This document shows, piece by piece, positions 1 through 15,923 of a stretch of DNA of 64,000 nt. Both the position numbers and the translations under genes were made by a program. The stretch is from assembly GCF_048403405.1 (NCBI RefSeq), contig NZ_CP183131.1. The stretch is one strand, 5' to 3'. Each line of letters opens with the position of its first letter. Position 1 is the first letter of the stretch. The stretch is from Escherichia coli. GTDB lineage: Bacteria; Pseudomonadota; Gammaproteobacteria; Enterobacterales; Enterobacteriaceae. The notes beneath the pieces were generated by a model. The model was not told the origin of the DNA and ran no database searches. It saw nothing but the letters and a program-made list of their open reading frames with translations.

Positions 1-1007
1 CCAACGTTCAGAATCGAGCGGAACTGGCTCCAGGATGTCCTGTATGCGACTTTCCTTGGTGCGAACAGGCTGAACCTTCTCAAGTTCAAACCCGTCGATC
101 CCGTGGGAAAGCGCAACAACACAAAGACGCTTGCGGCGCTCAATAACCCCAAACTCATTGCCGTCGAGAATGCGCTCTTGTAGGGAGTAACCCAACGAAG
201 AGAGCACCGAACGAATCACTTCCATCGAAGCGGTGTTCTGGTACTCAGGCACGTTCTCAATCAGCACAACGGCTGGGTTTAGCGCTTCTACGAATTGCAG
301 GAAGTTGAAGAACATGGCACCTGCCGCCTCATGCGATTCGGCAAACTCCAACTTGTTCTTACTGCGACCTGACTTTGACGCGCCGGTACACGGTATGCCC
401 CCCATCAAAACATCCACCTGTGGTGGGCGTTTGCTGAGATTCACAGCCTGGATTGGCGATTCGATAACAATAGAATCTTCGTTCCAAAGCTCCGGGTTAT
501 TTGCCAAAGACGAATCGAGATATTTCCCTTCCATCTCCACGGCCACAGATATGGCACTGGCAATTCCCGCCTTGTGAAAACCGGCGTGAATCGCTTTATC
601 AAGCACACCACCCCCATGAAAGAGGCTGCATACCGAAAGCGATTCTCCATTCTCCAGCTTACTGATAAGCCGGTTGACGCGCTCGATCACTCGCTCTTGT
701 TGATGGTGAGCAGAGATCACAATTGCGCCGTTACGGATGAACACGCGGAGCATCTCTACACCGTCAAAAACGGTAGCAAGCTCCTGCACGGTCAGATCGA
801 TGATTGGAGACACCCGGCCATTGCGCTCGCGCTTACTGATGGTGAACTTACCCTCCTCTTTGACGCGAAGCACAACCTGGGAATCTTTCAGCTCCAGATC
901 ATACTTCATGCCAGGATAGTAACCTTCACGCAGTAGCTTTTGGCCTTCCAGCCAGACGCGCTTCTTGCCTCGATGTTCTCCTAACTTGGTGTTTACGATA
1001 GTAGCCA
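1..1007 (-). CDS. DNA cytosine-5 methyltransferase (Dcm-like), 3' end cut by window edge
   Basis: Manual translation from ATG at 1005-1007 (RBS AGGAGAGAGC upstream) stays open to position 1; motifs FHGGGVL (motif I), GGIPCTGASKSG (motif IV with Pro-Cys), IENVPEY (motif VI); ~100 aa N-terminal extra domain. Confidence 0.7.
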
Positions 1008-1085
1008 TGAGCTCTCTCCTTTCGGTTGAGAGGCCACTACCGTCCCAATCGGGAAGTAATGGCCCCGATGGGTTTAAAGTGGTTC

Positions 1086-1388
1086 TCAGTTCACAGCGAT
1101 GCCGTGAGACTGAATGGCATTAGCAAAGCCAGCCATTTGTTCAGGGAAGGTGTAGCGGTTGATGTCCTGGCTGCGAGCCAGATTGACATGCACCTTCTTC
1201 ACCTTCGTTTCGTCAGAGTCGTACTTTTCAAGCGCCAGCTTCTCAGCTTCTTCCGGATCTCGGCCCAGCGAGTAGGCGTAAATCACAGAGGTGAAGCCAA
1301 GTCCTGAGCCGAATGCGTAGACTTGTTTCTCGAAATGGACGTCAGCGAAATAGATGCTGAATCCGGATTTGAGGTTATGTTTTTCCAT
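1086..1388 (-). CDS. hypothetical protein (100 aa)
   Basis: ORF track 1086..1469; start moved to ATG at 1386-1388 with RBS GGAGTG; preceded by conserved leader shared with module at 10066..10186. Confidence 0.5.
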   Translation of the reverse strand: MEKHNLKSGFSIYFADVHFEKQVYAFGSGLGFTSVIYAYSLGRDPEEAEKLALEKYDSDETKVKKVHVNLARSQDINRYTFPEQMAGFANAIQSHGIAVN

Positions 1389-1465
1389 GATGCACTCCAA
1401 ATAGTTTGGGGGCGCACCACGTCCCGAACCGGGCGGATGCACCCGGTTTAGGGTTAGTAGATTGC
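1389..1465 (-). promoter_or_regulatory. partial copy (proximal half) of the conserved 121-bp upstream module
   Basis: GGCGCACCACGTCCCGAACCGGGCGGATGC shared with 10066..10186 and 14901..15021, a few substitutions. Confidence 0.6.
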
Positions 1466-1810
1466 TCAAGCTGTTACGCCAGCCTGAGCCTTTATTGCTT
1501 CAAGCACGATCTCTGCTTCCTTGATAGAACCAGTGCTGTACAGCTTATGCAGCACCCGGCCAAGGTTCACAGAGATCTTTTCTTTCACTTGGAGATACTT
1601 GACATAGAAGTCATACAGTTTCTCCGCCTGCTCAAGGTGGGACATGCTCTCAACGGGAATGGTATTCCCTGGATTGCAGTACCACTTTCCGAGCACCTTT
1701 TGTACAAATCCCTCTTTGTCTCCTACGAACTGATTTGTGCCAAACACCCCACTGGTTGGTGAGCGTTGAATAACAGAAATCGGATTCGCAAAGCTGGCAA
1801 GAGTAGTCAT
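1466..1810 (-). CDS. hypothetical protein (114 aa)
   Basis: ORF track 1466..1867; start moved to internal ATG with RBS GGAGCC. Confidence 0.5.
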   Translation of the reverse strand: MTTLASFANPISVIQRSPTSGVFGTNQFVGDKEGFVQKVLGKWYCNPGNTIPVESMSHLEQAEKLYDFYVKYLQVKEKISVNLGRVLHKLYSTGSIKEAEIVLEAIKAQAGVTA

Positions 1811-1878
1811 AGTTGTGGCTCCATGTTTGTCAGGGAACCACCAGCCCGAGGGGCAGTGATCCCCCAAGGGTTATGTAG

Positions 1879-1950
1879 AATGCTGTTTGTTTGGGGAGGC
1901 CAGCTACCTCACTATTCACTCTCGACAGAGAGCAAAATCTTGCTTTCCGA
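1879..1950 (-). promoter_or_regulatory. degenerate copy (distal half) of the conserved upstream module
   Basis: GAATGCTGTTTGTTTGGGGAGGCCAGCTACCTCAC...CAAAATCTTGCTTTCC matches core of 10129..10190. Confidence 0.5.
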
Positions 1951-1959
1951 GGGGCACAA

Positions 1960-1977
1960 ACTTTCACATGTGAAAGT
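1960..1977. promoter_or_regulatory. 18-bp perfect palindrome ACTTTCACATGTGAAAGT (parS-like)
   Basis: Read directly; one of five copies of core CTTTCACATGTGAAAG. Confidence 0.6.
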
Positions 1978-2001
1978 CGATGCCACTGGGAAAGCAGGGG
2001 G

Positions 2002-2355
2002 TTAACCCCCCGCTTTAACCCGCGCTAAGCGGTTTAGGATAGACTTCACGCCTTCCCTTACTCCAGATGGATCGTAACCTGCTTCATCGCAGCAGACCAC
2101 AAATGAGAATGGATGTACCTCATCGGACATCACCCAAGCCATCGTTTCCTGCTTGATTTCACTTCCAGCTCGACCATCAGCAAGGACTCTAAGGCTATGC
2201 CATAAAAGCCCATCACGTAACTGCCTTACCTCATCATCAGTCCATTCAGGCTTTGGCTCAAATGGAATGACTTCTGCGGTCTTCGGCTCTTCATCCAGGA
2301 AGAAAAGCGGCAGCTCAAGCTGGTTTTCCTTCTGGATCATCTTCACTGCATTCAT
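2002..2355 (-). CDS. hypothetical protein (117 aa)
   Basis: ORF track 2002..2421; start moved to MNAVKM with RBS AAAAGGAGTCACC. Confidence 0.5.
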   Translation of the reverse strand: MNAVKMIQKENQLELPLFFLDEEPKTAEVIPFEPKPEWTDDEVRQLRDGLLWHSLRVLADGRAGSEIKQETMAWVMSDEVHPFSFVVCCDEAGYDPSGVREGVKSILNRLARVKAGG

Positions 2356-2423
2356 GGTGACTCCTTTTACGGGCACCATGCCCCCACAGGGGCATGAAGC
2401 CCCCAGTGGGGTTACAGTCATAG

Positions 2424-2615
2424 TTACTTCACGCCTGCCAGTTGAGAATTGATGTTCTCTTCCAGCCAGCCTTGAAGCGATTCAAGGTCACGTTTGTCTT
2501 CCGTATTGCTGGCTTTACGTGCATCTTCCGACACAGCGCTCAACATGGCGTTAGCCTCAGCAAGTGATTCAACATTGTTCCCAGGGAACACAATCGTTTG
2601 ACTGTGATCTTTCAT
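2424..2615 (-). CDS. hypothetical small protein (63 aa)
   Basis: ORF track 2424..2651; RBS AAGGAGAAGACC before internal ATG. Confidence 0.4.
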   Translation of the reverse strand: MKDHSQTIVFPGNNVESLAEANAMLSAVSEDARKASNTEDKRDLESLQGWLEENINSQLAGVK

Positions 2616-2672
2616 GGTCTTCTCCTTTGAGAATGGAGGACCGTCTCCCATCAGGAAGAGCGGCCCCGTGGG

Positions 2673-2948
2673 TTAAAAGTAAAAATCCTCCAGCTCTTCA
2701 TGGTCAGGCTTTCGCTCAACTGGTCGAAGCAACTCAGCTTCATCAGCGAACTCAAGCTCAGGATGAAAAGCAGGATGAAATCCTCGATGCCAGACTGGAC
2801 GGTCATTATCGAGGTCTAAGTAGCAGTGCCTCCCACTGGCTGGGTGATAGCAGTAAAGCCACTGTCTACCACTAACGGTAAACGGCTTCTCTGCACCTCC
2901 ACATGCCGGTACAAGGTTATCTGCTGCTATATGCGCTACAGCATCCAT
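2673..2948 (-). CDS. hypothetical protein with acidic-aromatic C-terminus (..ELEDFYF)
   Basis: ORF track 2673..2996; start moved to ATG after GAGGA; C-terminal tail read from track. Confidence 0.45.
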   Translation of the reverse strand: MDAVAHIAADNLVPACGGAEKPFTVSGRQWLYCYHPASGRHCYLDLDNDRPVWHRGFHPAFHPELEFADEAELLRPVERKPDHEELEDFYF

Positions 2949-2952
2949 AGGA

Positions 2953-3405
2953 TCAGTCCTCATCTTCGTCATCACGAACACAAAGATCACGAGCAACTAT
3001 TTCCGCAGCTATCAACGCATAATCGTTGCCCTGCCAGAACCACCGCTCCGCCAGCTCATAGGCTTCGCTGGAAGGTTCGCCATAACCATGAGCCACCACG
3101 TAATCGTGGAACACTTCATGATCAAATGCCTTGCCATCAGCTTCCATGAACCAACCGACAGGGCACTCCAGAATGCGATGCCTTACGACATCTCGCTCTG
3201 AATACCCCTCTCTGACGGCTTGCTCCAACATTTCCCGCGACATACCAGGAGGAGTGATGATCTCTATGCTGATCCCGTCACTTCCTGCAAGATTGTCCTC
3301 GTATGGAAGACCGGCAAGTGTAAGGTGATTGCGCTTGCACCAGCCGATGGTCCGAAGTATCCGACTTTTGTCAGACTCCCTGGCCGTGTATCGGTTAAGC
3401 TGCAT
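2953..3405 (-). CDS. hypothetical acidic protein (150 aa, C-terminus DDEDED)
   Basis: ORF track 2953..3462; RBS GGAGGTG before MQLNRY. Confidence 0.5.
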   Translation of the reverse strand: MQLNRYTARESDKSRILRTIGWCKRNHLTLAGLPYEDNLAGSDGISIEIITPPGMSREMLEQAVREGYSERDVVRHRILECPVGWFMEADGKAFDHEVFHDYVVAHGYGEPSSEAYELAERWFWQGNDYALIAAEIVARDLCVRDDEDED

Positions 3406-3784
3406 AGCCACCTCCAGCACACTCCCCATCTTCGATTTCACTTCCGAGCTCGACCATTCCAATCAGGTCAAGCTGGGTCATGTCCGAATCCAGAGAGCAG
3501 TCAATTGCTGACTGAATGATGCCTTTGTGGGCCAAGCCTAAAACGGACTTAATAGTCGAAAGCAGAGACTCGGCTTCGCTCTCGATTTGCTCCAGAATGT
3601 CTTTCCATTCCCAGTGCTCAAACGGTTGCCAAACGACCAGATCCTCAGGCTCGTCTCCCCGTTCGACACACTCAGACAAATACTCATAAGCCTTGCACCA
3701 ATTCTCTTGTTGGCCCAGTTCACTGAGCACTAGAGCGGTAGCATGACCGTATGCGATTTGTTCAACTTTGGTATTGATAGACAT
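3395..3784 (-). CDS. hypothetical highly acidic protein (129 aa)
   Basis: ORF track; strong RBS GAGGAGAAACACT before ATG. Confidence 0.55.
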   Translation of the reverse strand: MSINTKVEQIAYGHATALVLSELGQQENWCKAYEYLSECVERGDEPEDLVVWQPFEHWEWKDILEQIESEAESLLSTIKSVLGLAHKGIIQSAIDCSLDSDMTQLDLIGMVELGSEIEDGECAGGGYAA

Positions 3785-3845
3785 AGTGTTTCTCCTCGTA
3801 ATGGATAGAGGAGCCCCACCCGCAGGAAAGGCTCCTCCGGATGGG

Positions 3846-4076
3846 TTAAATTTCCAAGGTCACATCGGTTTTTGCTTTAGCGCAGCAAACCAACACTTCC
3901 CCTTCTTTGACAAATGCGATGGGCGTCTCGTCATAGGCCACTTGACCTTCGAGTAGACGAACCCGGCACATGCCACAAAAGCCACTGCGACAATGCGTTT
4001 CAACAGTGAGGCCTTTGCTTTCGATTTGCGCCAACAGCACATTGTTGCTGGCTTGAAGTTGTACGTTCATGGTCAC
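3846..4076 (-). CDS. 2Fe-2S ferredoxin-like small protein
   Basis: CRSGFCGMC (C-x4-C-x2-C) plus downstream CC; RBS AAAGGAGCG. Confidence 0.6.
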   Translation of the reverse strand: MTMNVQLQASNNVLLAQIESKGLTVETHCRSGFCGMCRVRLLEGQVAYDETPIAFVKEGEVLVCCAKAKTDVTLEI

Positions 4077-4135
4077 GCTCCTTTGTTGTTGATGAGCGCG
4101 ACCAATCCCCTCCGGGATGTCACGCCCCGGTTGGG

Positions 4136-5020
4136 CTACTCAGCAAGTGCATAGACACCTACCTCGATGCGAATAAAGAACCTGGCATCTTGAAGAACTT
4201 GCCTGACCTTTGCTTGCCAGTGGTTGTTCTCTCGATGCTTTGCGTAGGGTTCAATCTCTTTGTAAATCTGCTCCAGCTTCAACGTTTTCCCCTGTAGGGT
4301 TCGGCGTATTGCAGCTTTCCACGTAGTCGAAACCATATTGGTTGCTCGACGGTGTACGGCAGCAAGAAGACAGAGCGATGAGGCAACGTCGTTACGACGA
4401 AACACCAACAGCTTTTCATGGGCGATACGCACCAGCTTCCCGGAATACTGAGTTCGGTCACTCACACAGTTGTGCTGTGTTTTGATGATCTCATCCACCA
4501 GCTTCCCAGGTGCGATACGTTCCACAAGGCTGGACAGGTTGAAATAATCCCCATCGCGCCTCAGGTTTCCCATGAGGATTCCGTAATGCCCTCCTCGCTC
4601 ACAGGCGTCATGAATATTCATAACGGCCAGCTCAAGGGCTTCAACGAACTCAGGCAAATTCATGCGGCTCATATCCCATTTGTTGGGCTCGCCCCACTGC
4701 TTACCTGAATACTGGATCATGTCCCAGTAAGGAGGGTGCCACCAGATCAGGTGTGCAGGCTCTCCGAGGAACGAAAGGAAGTCATCCCGCAACAGGTTGA
4801 ACCCCTGATGCAAGTCTGTCCCTTTGAAACGGACACCAAGTTCATTGGCAACGTCGATGCTAGAGCCACCCCCAACACTTGGGTCTGCCACCAGCCCGTT
4901 CGGCTTTCTCATGTAAGACTCAATGAAGTCTTTAACGATAAAGCCCGAGCAGTTGCCTCGGTACTTGTTGTTTCCGTAAGGCCCCCTGTTTTCGTAGGAG
5001 CATACTGATGATTTGAACAT
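4136..5020 (-). CDS. DNA amino-methyltransferase (N6A/N4C type, motif I before PPY)
   Basis: ADPSVGGGSS (motif I-like) then WWHPPYWD (motif IV PPY); RBS GGAGGA before MFKSS; ORF track 4136..5059. Confidence 0.6.
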   Translation of the reverse strand: MFKSSVCSYENRGPYGNNKYRGNCSGFIVKDFIESYMRKPNGLVADPSVGGGSSIDVANELGVRFKGTDLHQGFNLLRDDFLSFLGEPAHLIWWHPPYWDMIQYSGKQWGEPNKWDMSRMNLPEFVEALELAVMNIHDACERGGHYGILMGNLRRDGDYFNLSSLVERIAPGKLVDEIIKTQHNCVSDRTQYSGKLVRIAHEKLLVFRRNDVASSLCLLAAVHRRATNMVSTTWKAAIRRTLQGKTLKLEQIYKEIEPYAKHRENNHWQAKVRQVLQDARFFIRIEVGVYALAE

Positions 5021-5093
5021 GGCGTCCTCCATCATAGATGGGGCGCACCATGCTCCCATCAGGGGCCGGTTCGCCCCTGGTTAGGGATTAAGA

Positions 5094-5594
5094 TCAAGCG
5101 TTATCTGCATACCACCAGCTAAGGCGATTGCAATCACGAAAGAAGGTTGCTTCATCAGGAGCCTTCATCATGACCACATCACCTTCGCAGTAGGTGCATA
5201 GCTCAAGCGTTGCTTCATTTTTCCAAAAGGCACTGCACCCCGATTCTTGATACACAACCTCCCATTTGGGATGTCGCAAGTACCGATGGAAGAAATCGAG
5301 AGTGTCACCATAAGGGAAGTTGAAGCGCTCCATCACTGAACCATTTTCTGTCAGTTCAGGTTTAACCTTGCCGGTTTTCAAGCGCTTCTTGATGATGCGC
5401 TGAACCCAACGAAGTCGTGCAAACAGCCGATTGGTGTCTTTCTCGTACCACTGGGGATTACGCTTGCTCCAGTAGAGCTTGGCGAAGATTTCCCCGGACA
5501 AATCCTTCATCTGGTTTTCGTTGAGCTCATCAAGAAAACGTCGAGAAGGTTTGTCGTAGTCAAGAACTGCTTCCAAAGCTGATAGGTTTTTCAT
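5094..5594 (-). CDS. hypothetical protein (166 aa)
   Basis: ORF track; RBS AAGGAGTCCCT. Confidence 0.55.
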   Translation of the reverse strand: MKNLSALEAVLDYDKPSRRFLDELNENQMKDLSGEIFAKLYWSKRNPQWYEKDTNRLFARLRWVQRIIKKRLKTGKVKPELTENGSVMERFNFPYGDTLDFFHRYLRHPKWEVVYQESGCSAFWKNEATLELCTYCEGDVVMMKAPDEATFFRDCNRLSWWYADNA

Positions 5595-5684
5595 AGGGAC
5601 TCCTTATTGCGATTGCGGAGCCCCGTCCCCTCAGGGCTATCGGAGCCCCATAGGGTTAATTAGGGTTAATGGTTGAACGGCGAT

Positions 5685-6224
5685 TTATCGAGGGTTGGTG
5701 AATCGAATGGCTTTACCAACGAAATCGGCCATCAGTCGATTCCCAGTAGAGCTGAAATAGCTCTGCCACTCTTTCCAACCACCAACGGATTCCACCGAGC
5801 TTGGAGACTCGAAGATACCCCAGATACGCATTTCACAACCTCGTTGCAACACTCGGTTTACCTGGTCAACCAAGTATTCCTTGTTCTGCAATGAAGAGAG
5901 GTTGCAAGGCATCTGCATGATCAGCTTTTCAGCTTGCTCGAAGTCGATTTTTTCAATCAACCCCGTGCGGGTATCCACAGAGAATGGAACCACCTGTTGA
6001 CCGTGGTTAGACCACAACCAATGGGTGATATAGATCGGATTAACGCCAACTTCCGCTGGCACCAATACGCTGCCGCAAGACCGCAACAGCCAGACCAGAC
6101 GTAAACCATCGAATCGATCCAGAGACTCCACATCGGTAGTGATGTCATCCTGGTAGATTTCAGGCAGCTTATGTTCGGCGGCGAGAGAGATCATTACGGA
6201 TTTGAGATTGTTCAGATGAGACAT
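5685..6224 (-). CDS. hypothetical protein (179 aa)
   Basis: ORF track; RBS AAGGAGCACAC; first gene downstream of a module copy. Confidence 0.55.
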   Translation of the reverse strand: MSHLNNLKSVMISLAAEHKLPEIYQDDITTDVESLDRFDGLRLVWLLRSCGSVLVPAEVGVNPIYITHWLWSNHGQQVVPFSVDTRTGLIEKIDFEQAEKLIMQMPCNLSSLQNKEYLVDQVNRVLQRGCEMRIWGIFESPSSVESVGGWKEWQSYFSSTGNRLMADFVGKAIRFTNPR

Positions 6225-6290
6225 GTGTGCTCCTTAAAGTAACTTGGGCACACAGAGCCTGTCAGGCGCAGTGCGCCCTTAGGCTGAGGT

Positions 6291-6365
6291 TGAATGCTGT
6301 TTGTTTTTGGCGACCAGCTATCGCACGTTTCGCCCTCAGAGAGGACAAAATTCACTTTCTCAGCA
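6291..6365 (-). promoter_or_regulatory. degenerate copy (distal half) of the conserved upstream module
   Basis: GAATGCTGTTTGTTTTTGGCGACCAGCTATCGCACGTTTCGCC nearly identical to core at 10129..10165. Confidence 0.55.
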
Positions 6366-6488
6366 ACCCTCAATGAAGGCCTCTGAGAAAGTGGGAGGGT
6401 ATTCCCTCCTCACTTTGATTGTTCCACGAGAGCTGTGTGAACAGGAACGCTCAAACTGCCCTTTTCGGGTGCAAAGCTCAAAGACGCA

Positions 6489-6824
6489 TCAACTGCCCCG
6501 TCTTTTCAGTTCTTCGACCAGATGTTCAGGCACCTTACTCGCAGTACAGGCCAGCAATACATCGAGGCCTACCGGCTTGTGAAAGCGCTTATTTGACCAG
6601 GAATCGCCAACTGATGACTTTGCCCAGTCGATTGCTTGCCCAAGACTGTGGAACTGCCGCCTGCCTGTGTATCCCATACGACTATCCAAAGTAACACCCT
6701 GGAACAGTCTCCAGTACATCGGAGGAATGCGCTTAGCAAGCAGTAAAAAAGGCGTCTCCGGCACTGTAGCCCTTCTACCTTTGTTCCGATGATACAAATC
6801 CAAAGATGAATGGAATTGGTTCAT
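6489..6824 (-). CDS. hypothetical protein (111 aa)
   Basis: ORF track; RBS GGAGAG. Confidence 0.45.
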   Translation of the reverse strand: MNQFHSSLDLYHRNKGRRATVPETPFLLLAKRIPPMYWRLFQGVTLDSRMGYTGRRQFHSLGQAIDWAKSSVGDSWSNKRFHKPVGLDVLLACTASKVPEHLVEELKRRGS

Positions 6825-6833
6825 AGACTCTCC

Positions 6834-6867
6834 AAATAAAAACGGCCACCCCCGAAGGGATAGCCGT
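6834..6867 (-). terminator. intrinsic terminator after vWA gene
   Basis: Minus-sense ACGGCUAUCCC-UUCG-GGGGUGGCCGU followed by UUUUUAUUU. Confidence 0.6.
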
Positions 6868-6885
6868 TTGTCGTTTCACTTCCTG

Positions 6886-8682: not shown

Positions 8683-8766
8683 ATCTTTTCTCCTGGTAGG
8701 GAAGGAGATAGTCCACCCCTGGAGGGAATGGCTATCCCCTCCGGGTCGGTTTAGTTGAAGTGACTA

Positions 8767-10044
8767 TTAGAAGAAATAGTCGCCATCGTCGTCAGTTTTA
8801 GGCAGCTCCTGGTTGAGAGGCTCCTCTGTCGGCTCCTCTTGGACAGGCTCTTGCTCTACCGGAGTTTCCTCAGGCAAAACCGGCTCATCCTCAACATCAA
8901 CGCGCTCTTCTCGAACCACATCACCGGCATTGGATTCATCTTCCGATTCACCCTCGCCTCGTTCTGCAAAACTCTTGAAGAAGTTGTCGATGTCTTCATC
9001 CAGGTCAACAGCGTTACCACCGCTGTTAGTCTGTTCTGATTGAACAGATTCAGTACCACCTACCTGTTGCTGCTTGGTTTCGCCACCCTCTGTTGCAGGG
9101 ATAAGCTCACCGGCTTTATCGCTTTTCTGTTCGGCCTTTTCATCTTTAGAACGGTCCCCCATCTGGGCTCCCGAACCGCCAATGTCATTAGCCATGCCCT
9201 CTACAGTAATCGAGCCATTGGCATACTGCTCGATGCGGTCCCTCTCGCTCATGATCAGCACTGCGGCCACGACCTGATAAAAGAAAGGCGCAACGATGTT
9301 TCGGCCATCGGCATGTTGCTCGTATCCCCGGAGGGTTTGGTCGAGCAGCTTGACCAGAGGGTTAAAAGCGCTGTTCAGGAAGCTAAGCCCATCCACCTTG
9401 TCGCGGATGTTACGGAGTGTCTGCCGAGTAGTGACCGCACATTGGTCTCGACCGGCCAAACGTTCCATATAGAACTTATTCGCTTCCTGAACCACTTCGG
9501 AGATGAGATCGTCACCCAAGCGCTCAACCTTGCGGTTAAGGCGTTTGGCGTTGGCCTCATCTTCGTTCACAGGCTGGATCATGAACACCTGGTACTCAAA
9601 GCCAATCCGCTCCTCGACCGTTTCCTTTGGAAGGGCTCCGGCACGGATAGCTCGTTCATACTCAGGGTTCTCCTGACACCATTCATCCACGGCTTTGTTG
9701 TAACCTTTGATGAAATCCTGTTTCAGTTGGTTAAACTGAAAGTTTATGTCATTCAGCTTGTTACAGATTTCATCGGTCTTGCTGACGGGTACGGCAAATC
9801 CGTTCATGAACGGCATACCGAATTTCAGCAGGAGGCGACGAGTTTCTGTTTTCAGGCGATGAAAGCCTTTCAGCTTAGCCGGATCACAGATCTTCTTACT
9901 TCCCAGTTGAGCTACTTTCTCAGGTGGAATTTCACCACCCTCGCCCAGCTTGAGATCAGATGCAGACAAACGGGTTTGTCCACTCCAGATGTCAAAGTCT
10001 ACGTGGATAACACAGAGGCTTTGTAGATGGTTCACTTTAGTCAT
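8767..10044 (-). CDS. hypothetical protein with E/P-rich acidic tail ending DDDGDYFF
   Basis: ORF track 8767..10056; start moved to ATG after GGAGTGCATC. Confidence 0.55.
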   Translation of the reverse strand: MTKVNHLQSLCVIHVDFDIWSGQTRLSASDLKLGEGGEIPPEKVAQLGSKKICDPAKLKGFHRLKTETRRLLLKFGMPFMNGFAVPVSKTDEICNKLNDINFQFNQLKQDFIKGYNKAVDEWCQENPEYERAIRAGALPKETVEERIGFEYQVFMIQPVNEDEANAKRLNRKVERLGDDLISEVVQEANKFYMERLAGRDQCAVTTRQTLRNIRDKVDGLSFLNSAFNPLVKLLDQTLRGYEQHADGRNIVAPFFYQVVAAVLIMSERDRIEQYANGSITVEGMANDIGGSGAQMGDRSKDEKAEQKSDKAGELIPATEGGETKQQQVGGTESVQSEQTNSGGNAVDLDEDIDNFFKSFAERGEGESEDESNAGDVVREERVDVEDEPVLPEETPVEQEPVQEEPTEEPLNQELPKTDDDGDYFF

Positions 10045-10065
10045 GATGCACTCCAAAAAGTTGGG

Positions 10066-10186
10066 GGCGCACCACGTCCCGAACCGGGCGGATGCGCCCG
10101 GTTGGGCTAGTAAATTAACGTTAATTTGCTGTTTGTTTTTGGCGACCAGCTATCGCACTTTTCGCTCTCCGAAGAGAACAAAATCT
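10066..10186 (-). repeat. conserved 121-bp upstream module, copy 1 (identical to 14901..15021)
   Basis: 121 bp identical by direct reading; contains hairpin CCGGGCG-N4-CGCCCGG and palindrome AAATTAACGTTAATTT. Confidence 0.85.
10112..10127. promoter_or_regulatory. 16-bp perfect palindrome AAATTAACGTTAATTT (operator-like) inside module copy 1
   Basis: Read directly. Confidence 0.5.
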
Positions 10187-10243
10187 TGCTTTCCGTTGGA
10201 GACTCCCAGAATCCCCAAGGGAAAGCGGGGGAAAATCCCCCAC

Positions 10244-11254
10244 TCACCAGTAGAACGTCTCTACTTCTTCCGGCAAATCATCAAGAGGAGCAAGCACGTC
10301 CTCATCAACAATGTACCGTGGCTTCACAGAGCCAGTAACCGTTACACGGCACCGCTCTGATGACTTCTCTCTGTACTGGTCAACATCCTCAGGCTTCACG
10401 CCTGACGCCTTATCAGCCAACAGCTTTTTGTAGTCTACCCGGCCAGCCGCTTTGTATCTCGTTACCATCACACCGCAGTAGTCGGCATGGAAGTATTCCC
10501 CCATGAGGGACTTCATGGTGTCGAGATGAGGCTTTTGCCTTTCTTGAAGCTCAGACAGTCGCTGTTTCAGCTCCTGAATCTCAGCATCATAGAGGCGGTA
10601 TTCCTCAGCAGCAGCAATCCAACGGTTGACCTCTTCACCTTGCGGTATGTACAGGTCTCTCTCTGGATCTTTGTCGGGCTCCTTCTTGTCTACTACCTGT
10701 TGCCAGAACTTTTTAGCCTCGGCCAAGATTTCTTGAATCATGGCTTCGTCTCGGAGTATTGGAAACTCCTGAATCTGACCTTCAAAGTAGAAGACTAACC
10801 AGCCTTGCTTGGCCCCCGTTACCAGGAGCTGGTGTTGCACCTGCGGGTAATAAAGCTGGTATGCCTTGCTGTTTGCTTTCTCAGCACAAACATCTTCCCA
10901 GACAGTCGCACTCGGGCTTTTCAGCTCGACGGGCTCCCCGTTATCTCTCAGGCCATCCAGGGAGGCCCTCATGAGCGGGTATTGAACCGATTCGACACAG
11001 GCGGGGAGCAGCATGTCATCATACTTCTCCTCGAAAGCGCGTCTTGCAGCATCTTCGTTTTCTATCCCCCGGCGAACCAGCGGATTAAGACTCAGATCGA
11101 CTTCACGCGCATACCCAGTCTTCTCGGCCCACAGTCTCCATCGTGTTTTGTACGGAGACCGATTGAGCAGGATAGCGGCGTCAGTGGCTGTTACACCTTG
11201 ACGCCGCCAATCAAGCCAATCTTCCTCTCGTTGCGATAGGTTGACTATTTTCAT
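10244..11254 (-). CDS. exo: alkaline exonuclease (lambda Exo / YqaJ-like) of ssb-bet-exo module; C-terminus ..EEVETFYW
   Basis: Size and gene order after bet as in SXT/IncC elements; RBS TGGAGAGAGG. Confidence 0.75.
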   Translation of the reverse strand: MKIVNLSQREEDWLDWRRQGVTATDAAILLNRSPYKTRWRLWAEKTGYAREVDLSLNPLVRRGIENEDAARRAFEEKYDDMLLPACVESVQYPLMRASLDGLRDNGEPVELKSPSATVWEDVCAEKANSKAYQLYYPQVQHQLLVTGAKQGWLVFYFEGQIQEFPILRDEAMIQEILAEAKKFWQQVVDKKEPDKDPERDLYIPQGEEVNRWIAAAEEYRLYDAEIQELKQRLSELQERQKPHLDTMKSLMGEYFHADYCGVMVTRYKAAGRVDYKKLLADKASGVKPEDVDQYREKSSERCRVTVTGSVKPRYIVDEDVLAPLDDLPEEVETFYW

Positions 11255-11316
11255 GGACCTCTCTCCAATGGTTAGGAGGGAGATCTCCCCCAGCGGGGGA
11301 GTCCCCCCCGTTGGGG

Positions 11317-12306
11317 TTAGTAGTAACTGCCTTCCGCGCCCTCCTCTTCTGTAACAGGGATCATGTCCTCGTCACTCAAAGGCGGCATTTCTTCGGCACC
11401 AGGTTCAGCATTTGCAGAACCACCAGCGGCGGACTCTTGCTCGTGCGCTTCCTGGTAGTCAGGTTTCGGAGGCTCCATTTGATCCATCTCCTTGTCACGA
11501 AGGAATTGAGTCGCATATTGCAGTTCCGAACCTTCATACCGTCCCTTCACATACTCATGCGCCGCAGACCATGCGTTTTCAGCAATGGCGCGATTTGCGA
11601 GTTTGGTTAGGATCGGGTCAAGCTCTTTGTGCTCAATAGCCAAAGGCTCTTGGCTTTGAACTTGAGATGGTGAAGGGAGATTGGCAATAGCCGGGTTAAT
11701 GGCCGATGCCTGCTCCATTTCACGGATGCGTTCAGCTTCATCCTGGTCATAAATACCAGAGAAACCAAATGCGACACGAGAACACTGGATCAGCGACTTG
11801 TGCCGGAGTTGACGCTTGGTGTGCGTTTGCCAGGGGCCATCAACAGTGTAAGCACCATTGCGACCTTGACCCTGAAACGGTTCACGGTACACCTCATCAA
11901 TGAACTCCTTGATGCGGATAGGGCGAGATCTGTCCTTACGGTAAATCACGCATTCAATCCACTCAGGGCAGTCAACTTTCGCCCCCTGCATTCTGACCAT
12001 CTTGTCCGAATACACGAACTCGACGCCATCATACTGGGGATGCTCGTTGATGATGCGGCTCCAACCATCAACACCTACTACCGGAATGATCCCATTTTGC
12101 TTGTCAGGAAACGCATAGATTTCCCGAGTGAAAGGGTTCAAACCGTACTGTTCAGCCACGATCAGGAGCGTCATCATCTGCTCATCGGTCGGGGCACTTC
12201 CATCTCGCTGCTTGAATGCGGTCGCCTTCAAAGTTTCATAGAACTTTCGGGTGTCCACGCCAAACCGGCTTGCGATACGGGTTACAAGAGATTTGTTATC
12301 AGACAT
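11317..12306 (-). CDS. bet: single-strand annealing protein (Bet/RecT-type); C-terminus ..EEEGAEGSYY
   Basis: ORF track 11317..12348; start moved to MSDNK after RBS GGAGA; position between ssb and exo. Confidence 0.75.
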   Translation of the reverse strand: MSDNKSLVTRIASRFGVDTRKFYETLKATAFKQRDGSAPTDEQMMTLLIVAEQYGLNPFTREIYAFPDKQNGIIPVVGVDGWSRIINEHPQYDGVEFVYSDKMVRMQGAKVDCPEWIECVIYRKDRSRPIRIKEFIDEVYREPFQGQGRNGAYTVDGPWQTHTKRQLRHKSLIQCSRVAFGFSGIYDQDEAERIREMEQASAINPAIANLPSPSQVQSQEPLAIEHKELDPILTKLANRAIAENAWSAAHEYVKGRYEGSELQYATQFLRDKEMDQMEPPKPDYQEAHEQESAAGGSANAEPGAEEMPPLSDEDMIPVTEEEGAEGSYY

Positions 12307-12400
12307 GGTGTTTCTCCAATTCACGAATGAACGGTTTGAGGACACCATGACCCCCTCGGGGCATGAGTGCCCCCGTGGGGTTTAGTAAGAGTTGGCGGTG

Positions 12401-12928
12401 TTACCCGCCAGCCAAGTGGTGCAGCCGCATGAACGGGATGTCATCATCCCAGCCATCAGGAGCGGGACCATAGCCTCCGCCCATACCACCTTGCGGTGCT
12501 GATTGCTGCACAGGAGCAGATTGCGTACCGGCTCCTGTACGTTGCCCTTTTTGGGGCGCTGCACGTTGAGAGTTGTCCTGAGGTGCATTTCCACGACCAC
12601 CAAGCATCTGCATTTCAACGCAGTGTACTTCGGTGGTGTAGCGCTCGATTTGTTGGCTGTCAGTCCACTTCCGGGTGCGGTTGCTCCCTTCGAGATAGAC
12701 TTGGGAGCCCTTTTTCAGGTACTCACCAGCGACTTCTGCCAAACGACCTTTAAGCACAATACGGTGCCACTCAGTATGCTCTCTTTGCTCGCCAGACTGC
12801 TTATCGCGCCACGTATCCGTTGTTGCAACGTTGAAGTTGGCAACGGCAGTTCCGCTTGGCATGTAGCGAATTTCCGGGTCAGAACCGAGATTACCGACCA
12901 GAATTACTTTGTTGACGCCTTTAGACAT
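12401..12928 (-). CDS. ssb: single-stranded DNA-binding protein with 9-aa extension after DDDIPF
   Basis: N-terminus [15 protein letters not shown].., Gly-rich linker, DDDIPF then MRLHHLAGG before stop (verified by manual translation). Confidence 0.9.
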
Positions 12929-12991
12929 CATGACCTCCAAGTTATTTGGAGAGGGCCAACGCCCCTTTCGGGGAGCAAGCCCCCGTAAGGG

Positions 12992-13900
12992 TTAAAAAAA
13001 GTGATCCTCTTGTTCGGCGTCGATCTCTGCCAGGCGAATCAGCTCAGATACAAGGCCAAGCCTTTCTGCATCTGCTCTTACTTCGTCGTAGCTGAAACCA
13101 AACCGTTCAATGAGGGGTTTTAGTGAATCAAAACGCTCGTAGTCGAAGGTATCACCCTGTTCATCACAGAATGCCACCAGCGGCTTCTCTACGTTTGAAA
13201 AGTCATCCGCGAAACGCTGTTGCAGGTAAACCAACATCAGCAGGGGTTTGTGACCATGTTCCGGGCGGAGTTCACCAGCGCCTTCCAGCGTAGCTGGATG
13301 GATAGTGTTTTCGCCTAGTCCAGTGCTAACCCCAAGCTCATAACCGCTGTCAGTACGCATCAGCACACTGGGTAGCAAGTCATTTGAGCCTTCGCTCCGA
13401 GCAACCTCAAAGCCGATTAAACCGGCTCCTTTGGCAAAAACCCCAGCAACAAAACCTTTGAAGAGGTTTATGTCACCTGGAGGTAACTCAGAGGGCGGAG
13501 ATAACAGCCAGTTGAGAGATCCCAAGCTGGCTGTTTGTCCGGCTGAAACATTCCCCCCTTCCAGCACCGTCTGTGTCTCTGCGTTTACCAGCACCTCATC
13601 CAGAAAGGTGTACCCCTGGCTGAGAAACTGTGACACATACTGGCTTTCTTTGTCCTTGTAGGACATTGGGATCGTGTCTGGGCCGTTAGCTTCAAAAGGT
13701 CCTTCGAGCTTTGTCTCAGACCAATTTTCAGCTTTCCCATCAGTGACGGTTCGGCGTAGCTCGACCATCGTGAATTGGCCTGGCTCCGAGGAGCTGGGCT
13801 CCCGGAGCAACTTGTAGCCAATGAAGACTTCTATTGTGGTTTCGTCATTGCCCCACTCTTTAGCAGTGTAACGACGGCACAAACAGTCATTTTTCTTCAT
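12992..13900 (-). CDS. hypothetical protein (302 aa) ending ..AEQEDHFF
   Basis: ORF track; RBS AAGGGG; 10-nt gap after the AAA+ gene. Confidence 0.55.
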   Translation of the reverse strand: MKKNDCLCRRYTAKEWGNDETTIEVFIGYKLLREPSSSEPGQFTMVELRRTVTDGKAENWSETKLEGPFEANGPDTIPMSYKDKESQYVSQFLSQGYTFLDEVLVNAETQTVLEGGNVSAGQTASLGSLNWLLSPPSELPPGDINLFKGFVAGVFAKGAGLIGFEVARSEGSNDLLPSVLMRTDSGYELGVSTGLGENTIHPATLEGAGELRPEHGHKPLLMLVYLQQRFADDFSNVEKPLVAFCDEQGDTFDYERFDSLKPLIERFGFSYDEVRADAERLGLVSELIRLAEIDAEQEDHFF

Positions 13901-13910
13901 GCGTCACCCC

Positions 13911-14879
13911 TTAGCGCCATTGGTCCCCGAACACATCCTTCGCAACACGCAGGATGGCTTCACGCTCCTCTTTGGCCGCACGGATAAGCAGAGCTTGATC
14001 CAGGGCGTATTCAAGAGCATTTGGGGCACCACGGAACGCTAGAGACAGTTTCGCCCAACGCACCAACGTCCGAGTGGACATGGTGACGCTGATCTGACCA
14101 TCTTCACCGTTTTCGCCAAGAAACAGTTTGCGGACCTGATTAGCAATCCGAACCATTCCCTTCCGCACATTTTCCGGAAGTTTCGGAGTAACACGGCCAA
14201 GAATGCTGAGTTCAGCTTCCTCATCCGCATACCCTACTTTGGTGAAACGATAGCGATCCATAGCTGCGAGGTTCTGCATCATCACCCCCTGGTACAAACC
14301 AGAAGCATCACCGGACCCCGTAGAGTTACCAGTAACGACCACACGAAACATCGGGTGCGGCTTGATGATTTCCCCGCCATTCTGAGCGATCACAAGGGGA
14401 CGCCCTTCAAGGACATCGTTGAGACCAGCCAGCTCGGCAGGGTCGGCCAAATCCACCTCGTTGATGAGGAGCAGATGACCTTCACGCATAGCGACTGCCA
14501 GAGGTCCATACATGAACTTCATGACAGGTGGTTGACCAGGCTTTTCCGCGACCAGAGCGTGATGTCCAATCAGATCTGTCAGCTCCATCCGCCCGTGGGC
14601 AGTGATTTGCTGAACAGGCCAGTTGAGACGACCAGCGATCTCGGTGATACCTGAGGTTTTGCCAGACCCGGTAGGGCCGGTTACGAACAATGCGTCACCG
14701 CCAGGCTCTTTGAGATAGGCCAAGACCTCTCGCAGAAACTCTTTGCGGAAAACGTAGTTGGTATCAGTGGCAGGGATGAAAGGGTTTGAACCGTCAGCGT
14801 AGCCGATGGCCGTTACCTTCTCCGGAATGCTGGGCATACCGAAAACCTTGCTTACTGAGAATTGAGAGTATTGAGACAT
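13911..14879 (-). CDS. AAA+ ATPase (CobS/MoxR-like)
   Basis: Walker A GPTGSGKT, Walker B LLLINEVD; RBS TAGGAGCGCACCT. Confidence 0.8.
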   Translation of the reverse strand: MSQYSQFSVSKVFGMPSIPEKVTAIGYADGSNPFIPATDTNYVFRKEFLREVLAYLKEPGGDALFVTGPTGSGKTSGITEIAGRLNWPVQQITAHGRMELTDLIGHHALVAEKPGQPPVMKFMYGPLAVAMREGHLLLINEVDLADPAELAGLNDVLEGRPLVIAQNGGEIIKPHPMFRVVVTGNSTGSGDASGLYQGVMMQNLAAMDRYRFTKVGYADEEAELSILGRVTPKLPENVRKGMVRIANQVRKLFLGENGEDGQISVTMSTRTLVRWAKLSLAFRGAPNALEYALDQALLIRAAKEEREAILRVAKDVFGDQWR

Positions 14880-14900
14880 AGGTGCGCTCCTATTGTGACA

Positions 14901-15021
14901 GGCGCACCACGTCCCGAACCGGGCGGATGCGCCCGGTTGGGCTAGTAAATTAACGTTAATTTGCTGTTTGTTTTTGGCGACCAGCTATCGCACTTTTCGC
15001 TCTCCGAAGAGAACAAAATCT
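14901..15021 (-). repeat. conserved 121-bp upstream module, copy 2
   Basis: Identical to 10066..10186. Confidence 0.85.
14947..14962. promoter_or_regulatory. palindrome AAATTAACGTTAATTT inside module copy 2
   Basis: Read directly. Confidence 0.5.
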
Positions 15022-15098
15022 GCTTACTGATGGTATTCACCATGAGTAAGAAGACTTTTAAGGAGCGAGGAGAGTAGCCTCTCCTGGAGGCCACTCCC

Positions 15099-15284
15099 TC
15101 AATGGACGAACATCACCACATCGTCGTTTTGACCAATGACCCCGGTTTCTTTGGCCCACTTCACTGCTTCACTGTGCGCCTGGTAGGAGCTGGAATACAG
15201 TTTCGGATCAAATTTCACCTCGCGTCCATCAGCCAGATAGATGATGCCTGCGTGATCGTCGTAAACATGAAGATTCTGTTGCAT
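15099..15284 (-). CDS. hypothetical small protein (61 aa)
   Basis: ORF track 15099..15350; RBS AGGGGGA before internal ATG. Confidence 0.4.
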   Translation of the reverse strand: MQQNLHVYDDHAGIIYLADGREVKFDPKLYSSSYQAHSEAVKWAKETGVIGQNDDVVMFVH

Positions 15285-15400
15285 TCGACATTCCCCCTGT
15301 AGCTTGTCGTCAAAGCCAACTGACACCAGAAGACTTTGAGGACAAGCCACAGAGGCTTGACCAGAAAGAGAGGGGTTGCCCCCTCCCTTTGCGTTGACTA

Positions 15401-15493: not shown

Positions 15494-15507
15494 GATGTTG
15501 CTCCTAA

Positions 15508-15908: not shown

Positions 15909-15923
15909 GGTGTTGCTCCTATG

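Follow-up and report, generated by a model that had tools for sequence, protein, structure and literature searches.

An intercistronic element family in the IncC accessory array

The 64,000-nucleotide stretch of Escherichia coli contig NZ_CP183131.1 analysed here (the window) is backbone of an IncC (IncA/C2) multidrug-resistance plasmid, and across a 28-kb block of this plasmid nearly every gene is preceded by a module that reads, on the sense strand, AACCC, alternating G and C tracts, GGAG and ATG. Such elements occupy 18 of about 20 minus-strand spacers of at least 45 nt in the window, between 1006 and 15976, and none was found on the plus strand or in the other 48 kb. An over-extended coding-sequence annotation had concealed one of them (1386-1455); the two exceptions among the array spacers hold an intrinsic terminator (6834-6869) and a different long hairpin (about 15285-15397). 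A detector that required A[AG]CC followed by a hairpin of -17 kcal/mol or lower and by the SD and ATG of an ORF gave 19 matches on the minus strand of the window, all within 1008-15976 (18 true, one intragenic), and none on the plus strand or in 16-64 kb. On the complete IncC plasmid the elements are restricted to the single 28-kb array, which carries about 27 of them and where almost every cistron has one. Compared with dinucleotide shuffles, the 18 window elements have fold z-scores between -2.2 and -5.5. Sequence conservation is confined to AACCC and GGAG, the hairpin arms being gene-specific, and an unpaired A/U-rich stretch and the AACCC precede the first hairpin (H1) directly after each ORF.

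A sequence-only reading had recognized this family, correctly placed on the sense strand, in nearly every short spacer of the array. Its five example spacers (2356-2423, 12307-12400, 5021-5093, 3785-3845 and 8683-8766) are true minus-strand intergenic spacers, and all carry an element. The range it gave, 1008-15100, does contain elements, but the family reaches 15976 and continues leftward past the window start; its consensus, AACCC(C)AC-GGGGGC..CATGCCCC..GGGGG..CATGG, captures the shared tract pattern but as a literal string fits only 2353-2413 and 12304-12382. The window elements are as follows (LH is the long hairpin described below).

1006-1074, minus strand: before dcm (ATG 1008); AACCC 1074, LH 1066-1030, SD 1019; z -2.9; LH is retained in the MFE fold, with the SD within a small additional hairpin
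1386-1455, minus strand: before a 100-aa gene (true start ATG 1388); AACCC 1455, LH 1444-1410, SD 1398; z -4.6
1808-1872, minus strand: behind a leader pseudoknot, before the gene starting at 1810; AACCC 1872, LH 1867-1830; z -2.9
2353-2413, minus strand: before the gene starting at 2355; AACCCC 2413, LH 2402-2371; one of the copies matching the earlier consensus; z -4.8
2613-2674, minus strand: before the gene starting at 2615; the TAA of TAACCC is the upstream stop codon; z -2.2
3782-3847, minus strand: before the gene starting at 3784; TAACCC contains the upstream stop codon; z -3.9
4068-4137, minus strand: before a yfaE-like ferredoxin gene (ATG 4070); ribosome site GGAGCGUGACC mimicked by A5' GGGCGUGAC; z -4.9
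5018-5082, minus strand: before a 294-aa gene (ATG 5020); z -4.7
5592-5657, minus strand: before the gene starting at 5594; TTAACCCTA motif present twice; z -3.2
6222-6291, minus strand: behind a leader pseudoknot, before the gene starting at 6224 (vcrx098 operon); z -3.1
8680-8751, minus strand: before a VWA-domain gene (ATG 8682); z -3.0
10042-10108, minus strand: behind a leader pseudoknot, before a DUF3150 gene (ATG 10044); z -5.1
11252-11318, minus strand: before exo (ATG 11254); the TAA of TAACCCC is the bet stop codon; z -3.7
12304-12382, minus strand: between ssb and bet, before bet (ATG 12306); counterpart of the SXT bet attenuator; z -3.9
12929-12993, minus strand: before ssb (ATG 12931); LH is retained, with the SD within a small additional hairpin; z -3.0
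14877-14943, minus strand: behind a leader pseudoknot, before the AAA ATPase gene vcrx089 (ATG 14879); z -5.0
15491-15555, minus strand: before an unannotated 30-aa ORF (15401-15493); z -5.5
15906-15976, minus strand: behind a leader pseudoknot, before vcrx087 (ATG 15908), the first cistron of an AcaCD-driven operon; z -4.3

Six segments and two predicted folds

Each element has six segments, which from 5' to 3' are 0, A5', A3', B5', B3' and C. Segment 0 is AACCC(C), A5' is a G-rich mimic of the downstream ribosome site, A3' is C-rich, B5' is G-rich, B3' is C-rich and anti-SD-like, and C is the GGAG-to-AUG region of the next gene. In the predicted OFF ground state segment 0 would pair with B5' and A5' with A3' (H1), and B3' would pair with C (H2), hiding the SD and start codon; in the competing ON state A would pair with B as the single long hairpin LH, leaving segment 0 and the ribosome site free. 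The earlier reading had described four tracts in mutually exclusive hairpins, followed by the ribosome site. Two of its pairings, G2:C3 (A5':A3') and C3:G4 (A3':B5'), are real alternatives, but for C1 (AACCC) the predicted partner is G4 rather than G2, and the set is incomplete, since the alternative fold is one long hairpin that joins G2 to a fifth tract. This tract, B3', is predicted to pair with the SD and ATG of the gene that follows, so that the ribosome site belongs to the element.

All 18 window elements have a paired SD in their MFE folds. Of the 81 spacers of 45 nt or longer in three divergent arrays, 60 give a pair of neighbouring hairpins, the second of which holds the SD. Exposure of positions -13 to +3 costs a median of 7.9 kcal/mol for array genes versus 4.5 for the plasmid's non-array genes, a significant difference (p = 5e-4) between overlapping distributions. 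Complementarity was measured in 60 elements selected without reference to LH. Duplexes between the H1 region and B3' average -14.0 kcal/mol for cognate and -9.6 for non-cognate partners, and those between B3' and C average -12.5 and -7.4 kcal/mol, respectively (0 of 20,000 permutations in each case); each plasmid taken separately shows both specificities. The 5' arm of H2 thus has two specific complements, the ribosome site and, upstream, a mimic of that site. The mimic is element-specific and often lies in the H1 loop, a position in which it is usable by LH only (as in the element before ATG 4070).

Mean free energies are -17.9 kcal/mol for H1, -12.7 for H2 and -22.2 for LH, and the OFF state lies about 8-8.5 kcal/mol below the LH state. 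When segment 0 and its linker are deleted, LH becomes the MFE fold in 12-13 of the 18 window elements and in 36 of 52 elements from three plasmids. LH averages -22.2 kcal/mol on the sense and -18.3 on the antisense strand, with the sense strand better in 47 of 59 elements (p = 8e-9); G-U pairs make up 14% of its pairs, and detector matches in four replicons number 12/0, 15/3, 8/0 and 19/0 (sense/antisense). LH and masking of the SD are compatible rather than exclusive in three of the 18 window elements. Direct-path barriers, which are upper bounds, come to about 24 kcal/mol for OFF to ON and about 20 kcal/mol for nascent H1 to LH; with estimates this high, LH may never form without an active agent.

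Leader pseudoknots

Five of the window elements are preceded by a leader with no ORF close by, and these leaders carry copies of a predicted H-type pseudoknot. The copies, the AcaCD boxes and the terminator of the array are listed here.

16006-16036, minus strand: leader pseudoknot copy 1, GUGAGA-UAGCUGG-UCUCC-GAAAACAAA-CAGC, 27 nt 3' of the mapped vcrx087 transcription start
14963-14993, minus strand: copy 2, operon-internal
10128-10158, minus strand: copy 3, operon-internal, within a repeat of about 110 bp common to copy 2
6296-6326, minus strand: copy 4, 3' of the vcrx098 AcaCD promoter
1882-1912, minus strand: copy 5, stem GAGG/CCUC
16096-16124, minus strand: AcaCD box of Pvcrx087, CGAAGTGCCCAAAATGGACAGTTACAGCG
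6448-6476, minus strand: AcaCD box of Pvcrx098
6834-6869, minus strand: ordinary intrinsic terminator, hairpin plus U-tract, in an array spacer that has no element

The motif has two stems, bases of the stem-1 loop pair with a downstream strand, and the stems covary: 97.9% of alignment cells are paired, 37 cells are changed on both sides, the covariation score is 0.424 versus 0.179 (0 of 500 shuffles), and in S2 a G-C pair is replaced by A-U in two lineages. PreQ1-I riboswitches consist of a 5-bp P1, a loop with a ligand-pairing C, an A-rich tail and P2, and the leader resembles them in P1, the A-rich L3 and a 4-bp P2. It was rejected as a member of that class, as RF00522 gave no match and only 1 nt separates S2 from S1. 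Comparison of the elements and leader with Rfam gave chance-level matches only, none near a gathering score.

Conservation in other replicons

The architecture is kept, with different sequences, in IncA, Aeromonas, Vibrio, Edwardsiella, Alcanivorax, Paraglaciecola and Azomonas replicons and in an SXT/R391-type ICE. The double complementarity of the H2 5' arm is kept in IncC, IncA, Aeromonas, Vibrio, Edwardsiella, Alcanivorax and Paraglaciecola replicons and the SXT/R391-type ICE. When one subfamily is aligned, paired cells make up 88% for OFF and 97% for LH, versus at most 55% in slid controls. An alignment of the spacers had been proposed by the sequence-only reading as its check; AACCC and GGAG are conserved, and covariation is weak in the one subfamily formally aligned, where two pairs are altered on both sides.

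A default-off model and its rivals

Each element would act in cis, within the polycistronic mRNA of the AcaCD-controlled accessory array, to set the translation level of its downstream cistron. Segment 0 would be the lock: with it present OFF is favoured, and in its absence LH would be the ground state in about 70% of elements. Because segment 0 locks OFF and its loss favours LH, we think it fairly probable, from these computed folds, that the elements are modular default-off translational attenuators with a built-in anti-sequestor. Formation of LH in vivo, and its trigger, are steps that we infer. Opening would need the lock strand to be taken out of play, and in the roughly one quarter of elements in which the stop codon lies in or adjoins AACCC a terminating ribosome could do this, giving translational coupling. 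Such a ribosome is not a general trigger, since in 45 of 78 elements at least 13 nt separate the stop codon from the AACCC 3' of it, and the ORF-less leaders precede five of the window elements; elements with a distant stop would require a further factor or 5' processing. The array proteins yielded no RNA-binding candidate.

Several known systems share parts of this design. In the tetQ leader of CTnDOT, Hp1-Hp8 and Hp1-Hp2 are alternative hairpins (PMC5812530). The ermC, cat and tetQ leaders, in which the ribosome of a short leader ORF stalls over the first segment, resemble the elements in having hairpins that exclude each other, with one fold hiding the SD and start codon and its competitor releasing them. 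The elements differ in being intercistronic and repeated, and in having as competing fold a long nested hairpin built on a ribosome-site mimic. An AUG lies within segment A in only two of 18 elements, out of frame, and there is no conserved leader-peptide uORF. In R1 tap-repA, and in MS2 between coat and the replicase and lysis genes, structure that masks a downstream ribosome site can be opened by a ribosome arriving from upstream; the quarter of elements with a stop codon inside the lock motif resemble such coupling, but most stops are too far upstream and the five leaders are untranslated. In phage Mu, Com bound beside an inhibitory stem exposes the start site of the DNA-modification gene mom, which is a conceptual model only for a factor acting on AACCC, there being no similarity to the elements in sequence or structure. 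Integron attC sites, which follow every cassette as an imperfect hairpin set between an inverse core RYYYAAC and a core GTTRRRY, were rejected because the far end of the element has no matching core and is the next gene's SD-ATG.

It is possible, though we consider it unlikely, that the elements are static attenuators, in which H2 keeps costly accessory genes at a low, fixed level of translation, with LH absent in vivo and neither switch nor trigger; the LH complementarity would then only soften the thermodynamic cost of opening. This would fit the position of OFF as ground state by about 8.5 kcal/mol, the high barrier estimates, the lack of an evident universal trigger, and the SXT bet element, which secondary accounts describe simply as a strong attenuator. 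However, the conserved, element-specific mimic often lies in the H1 loop, and there it serves neither H1 nor H2; AACCC, for its part, does not vary between elements, and deleting it turns the ground state to LH. A fixed tuner would need neither mimic nor AACCC. We give still less credence to a role in processing or stability, an option the sequence-only reading had also offered. An endoribonuclease would cut in the A/U-rich stretch and AACCC before H1, and H1 and H2 would shield the upstream 3' end and downstream 5' end, much as at T7 RNase III sites or in REP-stabilised operons; cleavage that removed AACCC could double as the activating event. The placement of H1 directly after each ORF, behind that stretch and AACCC, agrees with this, as does the gain of LH and a free SD on loss of segment 0. 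The T7 early-region RNase III sites and REP/BIME are likewise intercistronic hairpins without U-tracts in long operons. But AACCC is not known to resemble the preference of RNase E, and LH, at 11-18 bp with bulges, is short for RNase III, whose T7-type sites have about two helical turns of dsRNA and often an internal loop. Unlike T7 sites and REP, moreover, the elements are gene-specific and pair with the next SD-AUG; as REP/BIME repeats, which are one conserved palindrome recurring around a genome, they were rejected because only AACCC and GGAG are conserved. Processing or stabilisation alone also leaves the B3':C pairing and the mimic unexplained.

Signals acting on RNA polymerase rather than the ribosome (pausing, attenuation or Rho-related) appear very improbable. 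Nascent GC-rich hairpins can pause polymerase, and the repeated leader pseudoknots could be antitermination signals, but a U-tract follows none of the 18 elements, which also bears out the earlier view that they are not terminators; the partner of the last hairpin is in every element the SD-AUG of the next gene, and vcrx087 to vcrx094 form a single transcript by RT-PCR (PMC7498323). The attenuator proposed by the sequence-only reading is supported, but as a translational, not a transcriptional, one. We find it hardest to credit a function in DNA, as single-stranded hairpins in conjugative transfer (priming or promoter-like) or as cruciforms or protein-binding palindromes. The elements are inverted repeats and the plasmid is conjugative, but the strand asymmetry, the many G-U pairs and the participation of SD and AUG in pairing all count against it, as do the maintenance of pairing while sequences vary, the lack of elements elsewhere on the plasmid, and their distance from oriT and mobI.

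The SXT bet attenuator as a family member

Upstream of SXT bet a structure has been published, according to secondary descriptions, as a strong translational attenuator that reportedly holds back expression of bet and exo; it is from this literature, and for the SXT bet member, that an effect of such a structure on translation is taken. A review passage on the bet attenuator says of its functionality in IncA/C that it "remains to be investigated". A SetCD- or AcaCD-driven operon containing bet has been described, and Roy et al. (2020) predicted a structure sequestering the vcrx089 RBS (PMC7498323). The SXT attenuator stands directly before bet in its operon, as does 12304-12382 in the window; the bet spacer of an SXT/R391-type ICE (locus L019) has the same H1/H2 architecture, and the predicted H2 of the window element pairs B3' with GGAG-to-AUG, occluding the RBS. 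These literature cases are single instances, whereas the computations here, of anatomy, three-way complementarity, conservation and energetics, describe a family with a competing hairpin, a lock motif and a leader pseudoknot. In the literature searched, where the SXT element (Garriss 2013) was compared through secondary descriptions, the family, its two-state design and the conserved leader pseudoknot appear to be undescribed. With modules before nearly every gene of the array, the SXT bet attenuator thus appears to belong to a large conserved family.

Structured elements in the spacers of an IncC gene array

The first 16 kb of the window match IncC (IncA/C2) conjugative plasmids at 99.8-100% identity by BLAST, pP99-018 (NC_008612) and 942 PLSDB records among them; these matches rule out the phage origin that its abundant small genes and hairpins had suggested. 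Every gene in 1-16000 lies on the minus strand, and the content includes dcm, small ORFs, a yfaE-like ferredoxin gene, VWA and DUF3150 genes, exo, bet, ssb, and genes for a 302-aa protein and an AAA ATPase. The exo, bet, ssb, 302-aa protein and AAA ATPase genes make up the hde operon (vcrx089-093) described by Roy et al. 2020 (PMC7498323); this operon (anti-restriction, ssb, bet, exo) allows survival of restriction and CRISPR upon entry into a new host (PMC7498323). The AcaCD boxes and transcription starts of vcrx087, vcrx098 and vcrx114 were mapped by Carraro et al. 2014, where hairpins go unmentioned.

The interval 1006-15976 has approximately 20 spacers that are 45 nt or longer, and eighteen of them share one layout on the minus strand. 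It begins with (U)AACCC(C) (segment 0), followed after 2-6 nt by a G tract (A5'), a C tract (A3'), 3-5 nt, a second G tract (B5') and a C tract with a CUC(C) end (B3'); 5-20 nt further on come GGAG, 6-9 nt and AUG (together segment C, which belongs to the next gene). The sequence-only reading had described paired GC-rich hairpins in these spacers, and all five of its example spacers carry the element; its literal consensus matches two copies, while the remaining copies have the same pattern in other sequence. It was also right that these are not terminators, as a U-tract follows none of the 18. A detector for the layout gave 19 minus-strand matches, all within 1008-15976, of which 18 are true and one is intragenic; neither the plus strand nor the further 48 kb of the window gave a match. 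All 18 copies fold better than dinucleotide shuffles (z-scores -2.2 to -5.5). Identities as attC sites, REP sequences or ssDNA promoters were ruled out on their defining features, and Rfam scans at gathering and relaxed thresholds returned no match for the elements or for the leader pseudoknot described below.

On a complete IncC plasmid the elements, approximately 27 copies on the sense strand, are restricted to one 28-kb array, with the divergent promoter region downstream of traN at one end and the toprim/RHS genes at the other, and the family therefore extends leftward past the window. The module is also present in IncA pRSE15 and IncC pVCR94, in Aeromonas, Vibrio and Edwardsiella plasmids, in contigs of Alcanivorax, a Rhodospirillaceae MAG, Paraglaciecola (39% G+C) and Azomonas, and in an SXT/R391-type ICE locus, where it lies upstream of bet, exo, CbbQ-type ATPase, DUF3150, VWA and radC genes. 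In the A+T-rich replicons L014 (Paraglaciecola, 39% G+C) and L015 (Vibrio, 43% G+C) the elements are still G+C-rich, and they are therefore compositional islands in every spacer.

Two predicted folds share one C tract

Folded alone, the G/C core of an element gives a single long, imperfect hairpin (LH), 11-18 bp in length and rich in G-U pairs. When folding is extended through the start codon, the minimum free energy structure differs from LH in 15 of the 18 copies: in hairpin H1 the AACCC of segment 0 pairs with B5' and A5' pairs with A3', and directly 3' of it, in hairpin H2, B3' pairs with the GGAG-to-AUG region of the next gene. LH is retained in three copies (1008, 2615 and 12931) in which the SD lies in a small extra hairpin, so that every one of the 18 predicted ground states has a paired SD. 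Two segments, C and A5', can thus partner B3', and A5' is itself similar to the ribosome site (GGGCGUGAC against GGAGCGUGACC at 4070; GGGGCAAC against GGAGCAAC at 15493).

Complementarity among A, B and C was measured against the element copies themselves with partners permuted. In the window, cognate B:C duplexes had a mean of -15.4 kcal/mol against -11.2 for permuted partners, and cognate A:B duplexes -23.6 against -15.9; no permutation was as low in either case. Because circularity had to be avoided, we also took all annotated spacers of 45 nt or more from the arrays of IncC, Aeromonas pK520-MPH and Vibrio pVPS43 (the DUF3150 proteins of the latter two share 67-71% identity with that of IncC). 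Of these 81 spacers, 60 fold into a pair of neighbouring hairpins, the second of which contains the SD, and these 60 test elements were picked without reference to LH. Pairing of the H1 region with B3' had a cognate mean of -14.0 against -9.6 kcal/mol for non-cognate partners, and B3':C of -12.5 against -7.4; neither excess was reached in 20,000 permutations, and both hold within every plasmid separately. Often the element-specific portion of the mimic is found in the H1 loop, where it is of use to neither H1 nor H2. In the orthologous spacers upstream of the AAA ATPase gene (IncC, Aeromonas and Vibrio in order), B3' reads GGUGCGCC, GAUGCGCC and GGUGUGCC, C reads CGCACC, CGCAUC and CGCACC, and A5' reads GCGCAUC, GUGCAUC and GCACAC, so the three segments appear to change in concert.

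The covariation check proposed for these spacers was carried out on a 10-sequence alignment of one subfamily: 88% (OFF, that is H1 + H2) and 97% (LH) of cells are paired against at most 55% in slid controls; variation in this alignment is low, and only two pairs per structure changed on both sides. For RNAalifold on eight exo-upstream elements the MAFFT alignment was too poor to inform.

Strand asymmetry and energetics

The sense strand gives a more stable LH than its complement does (-22.2 against -18.3 kcal/mol; sense better in 47 of 59, p = 8e-9), 14% of its pairs being G-U, and H1 + H2 show the same preference (-31.5 sense against -28.9 antisense, p = 8e-5). Detector matches in other replicons divide 12/0, 15/3, 8/0 and 19/0 between sense and antisense. 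This sense-strand bias, together with the involvement of SD and AUG, therefore points to function at the mRNA level.

Mean free energies are -17.9 (H1), -12.7 (H2) and -22.2 kcal/mol (LH). Against H1 alone, as in an RNA without segment C, LH is the more stable fold in 47 of 59 elements; with segment C present, H1 + H2 are ahead of LH by 8.5 kcal/mol. Deletion of segment 0 and the linker in silico made LH the ground state in 12-13 of 18 window copies and in 36 of 52 over three plasmids, and AACCC, the sole invariant sequence, therefore behaves as a lock strand in these predictions. Direct-path barriers, which are upper bounds, are approximately 14 (ON to OFF, ON being LH), 24 (OFF to ON) and 20 kcal/mol (nascent H1 to LH); they suggest two kinetically trapped states rather than a rapid equilibrium. 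Opening of -13 to +3 costs a median of 7.9 kcal/mol in array genes against 4.5 in other genes of the same plasmid (p = 5e-4), although the distributions overlap. We used this opening free energy in place of pairing probability over -14 to +3, a crude control in which the difference is just 0.62 against 0.52.

A leader pseudoknot heads each sub-operon

Each sub-operon is headed by a 31-nt motif that precedes its first AACCC by 8-45 nt. It consists of a stem of 4-5 bp, an invariant loop UAGCUGG, an A-rich stretch (AAAACAAA) and CAGC. Its five copies in the window are as follows.

16036-16006, minus strand, leader pseudoknot
14993-14963, minus strand, leader pseudoknot
10158-10128, minus strand, leader pseudoknot
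6326-6296, minus strand, leader pseudoknot
1912-1882, minus strand, leader pseudoknot

Further copies occur in the compared replicon loci L003, L005-L007, L011, L013, L014, L018 and L019. Since copy 16036-16006 starts 27 nt past the mapped start of the vcrx087 transcript, the motif is part of the RNA rather than an AcaCD box; GTGCGATAGCTGGTCGCCAAAAACAAACAGCA was ruled out as that box, since it sits in the transcribed leader and the true box differs (Carraro 2014 Table S3 mapped on pVCR94).

Among 26 distinct copies from nine replicon kinds (two IncC plasmids and two Vibrio loci being counted once each), the first stem covaries as GCGA/UCGC, GAGA/UCUC, GCGG/CUGC, ACGU/ACGU, GAGG/CCUC, ACGG/CCGU and GUGA/UCAC. 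The second stem joins loop GCUG to the downstream CAGC, and it is GCUA with UAGC in Paraglaciecola and the SXT-type ICE. Overall 97.9% of cells are paired, both sides are changed in 37 cells, and the covariation score is 0.424 against 0.179, with 0 of 500 shuffles reaching it. The motif belongs to the H-type pseudoknots, and its third loop is A-rich. A pattern search of IMG/VR gave one true copy, on an ICE fragment, the other matches being coincidences in coding sequence; the pseudoknot is limited to such arrays. We found no description of it in the literature. As speculation, it might act in cis against termination in an operon that is long and poorly translated, or it might load ribosomes for those first cistrons that no ribosome reaches from upstream.

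Other features of the array

Further features of the array are as follows.

1086-1469, minus strand, CDS; the AB571791 (GenBank) start is TTG 1469, the likely start is the SD-ATG at 1388, as in RefSeq
15401-15493, minus strand, unannotated 30-aa hydrophobic ORF (MEIAIIALCIPTGW...) with its own element and a strong SD
~15285-15397, minus strand, very stable long hairpin outside the family, upstream of the 61-aa gene 15099-15284
~10066-10185 and 14900-15020, two near-identical repeats of ~110 bp, each a small hairpin, pseudoknot and element
~15024-15051, minus-strand reading, imperfect 13-bp inverted repeat CTTACTCATGGTG AA TACCATCAGTAAG in the spacer upstream of the vcrx089 leader
12401-12440, minus strand, ssb 3' end; the plasmid SSB runs nine residues (MRLHHLAGG) beyond DDDIPF
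6834-6869, minus strand, ordinary intrinsic terminator (hairpin with U-tract) after the VWA gene

The element at 1386-1455 was hidden because the AB571791 CDS is over-extended across it. The 30-aa ORF is also kept in IncA, IncC and Aeromonas plasmids. In pP99-018 the 100 nt upstream of the 61-aa gene plus its first two codons fold at -51.9 kcal/mol, with the SD within the 3' arm of the predicted hairpin, which would thus mask an SD by structure outside the family. The inverted repeat could be an operator. The DDDIPF motif of SSB is normally C-terminal. The terminator probably marks the end of the first operon; it is followed by one small gene, beyond which lies the vcrx098 promoter with its AcaCD box (6476-6448). 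Multi-mapping reads at both ~110-bp repeats might conceal signals in published ChIP-exo and 5'-RACE data.

A proposed default-off translational attenuator and its trigger

We commit to the reading that the elements would be translational attenuators that are off by default and carry their own anti-sequestor. When an element is OFF, H2 would conceal SD and AUG while H1 holds the ribosome-site mimic; in the ON state B3' would be tied up by LH and the ribosome site left free, the state being set by availability of the AACCC strand. The sequence-only reading had offered attenuation among its functions, and attenuation stands, but as an action on translation, with a ribosome site inside the element that it had missed. 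A serious rival is a static attenuator in which LH is never used; it would leave the conserved mimic and the invariant AACCC without explanation. That the structures of all elements are predictions is, with the trigger, the main uncertainty.

The trigger is the weak point of the switching mechanism. In 21 of 78 elements, among them the ones ahead of exo, ssb and a number of small genes, a stop codon lies inside AACCC, and there a terminating ribosome would cover the lock and give translational coupling. As a general trigger the terminating ribosome is ruled out by stop-codon distances, the stop being at least 13 nt upstream of AACCC in 45 of 78; an untranslated leader precedes five window elements. 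Such elements would need another agent: an AACCC-binding factor, cleavage between segment 0 and A5', a helicase or a standby ribosome. Among the array proteins NCBIfam and PHROGs gave only a YfaE ferredoxin and a CbbQ-type ATPase, and no trans-acting candidate. The high estimated barriers count against a spontaneous kinetic window, in which nascent RNA would pass from H1 through LH to OFF.

Significance

An attenuator upstream of bet has been published for SXT (its counterpart here is 12304-12382, minus strand), and it appears to belong to the family described here. In our search of the literature on AcaCD, IncC or SXT in combination with hairpin, stem-loop, attenuator or pseudoknot, no such family was described. 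Within the accessible literature, the existence of a whole family, its competing hairpin and its lock motif seem not to have been reported.

If nearly every array cistron is so gated, RNA-seq levels would be no guide to protein output, and deletion constructs in the array would carry built-in polar and structural effects; one unexplained effect of this kind was seen by Roy et al. (PMC7498323). One conserved motif, AACCC or the pseudoknot, could then serve as a control point for establishment in a new host. The modules would offer a natural library of compact two-state translation gates, each fitted to its own ribosome site. A bolder proposal, which we hold to be improbable, is that the whole 28-kb array (defence evasion, recombination, DNA modification) is one post-transcriptional regulon, in which a single AACCC-recognising agent (a plasmid or host RNA-binding protein, sRNA or endoribonuclease) would flip approximately 27 kinetically trapped switches from OFF to ON together, while the leader pseudoknot, as a cis-acting antiterminator, would keep RNA polymerase going through kilobases of poorly translated RNA. 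If this is true, IncC plasmids and SXT/R391 elements would have a new level at which their establishment in new hosts is controlled.
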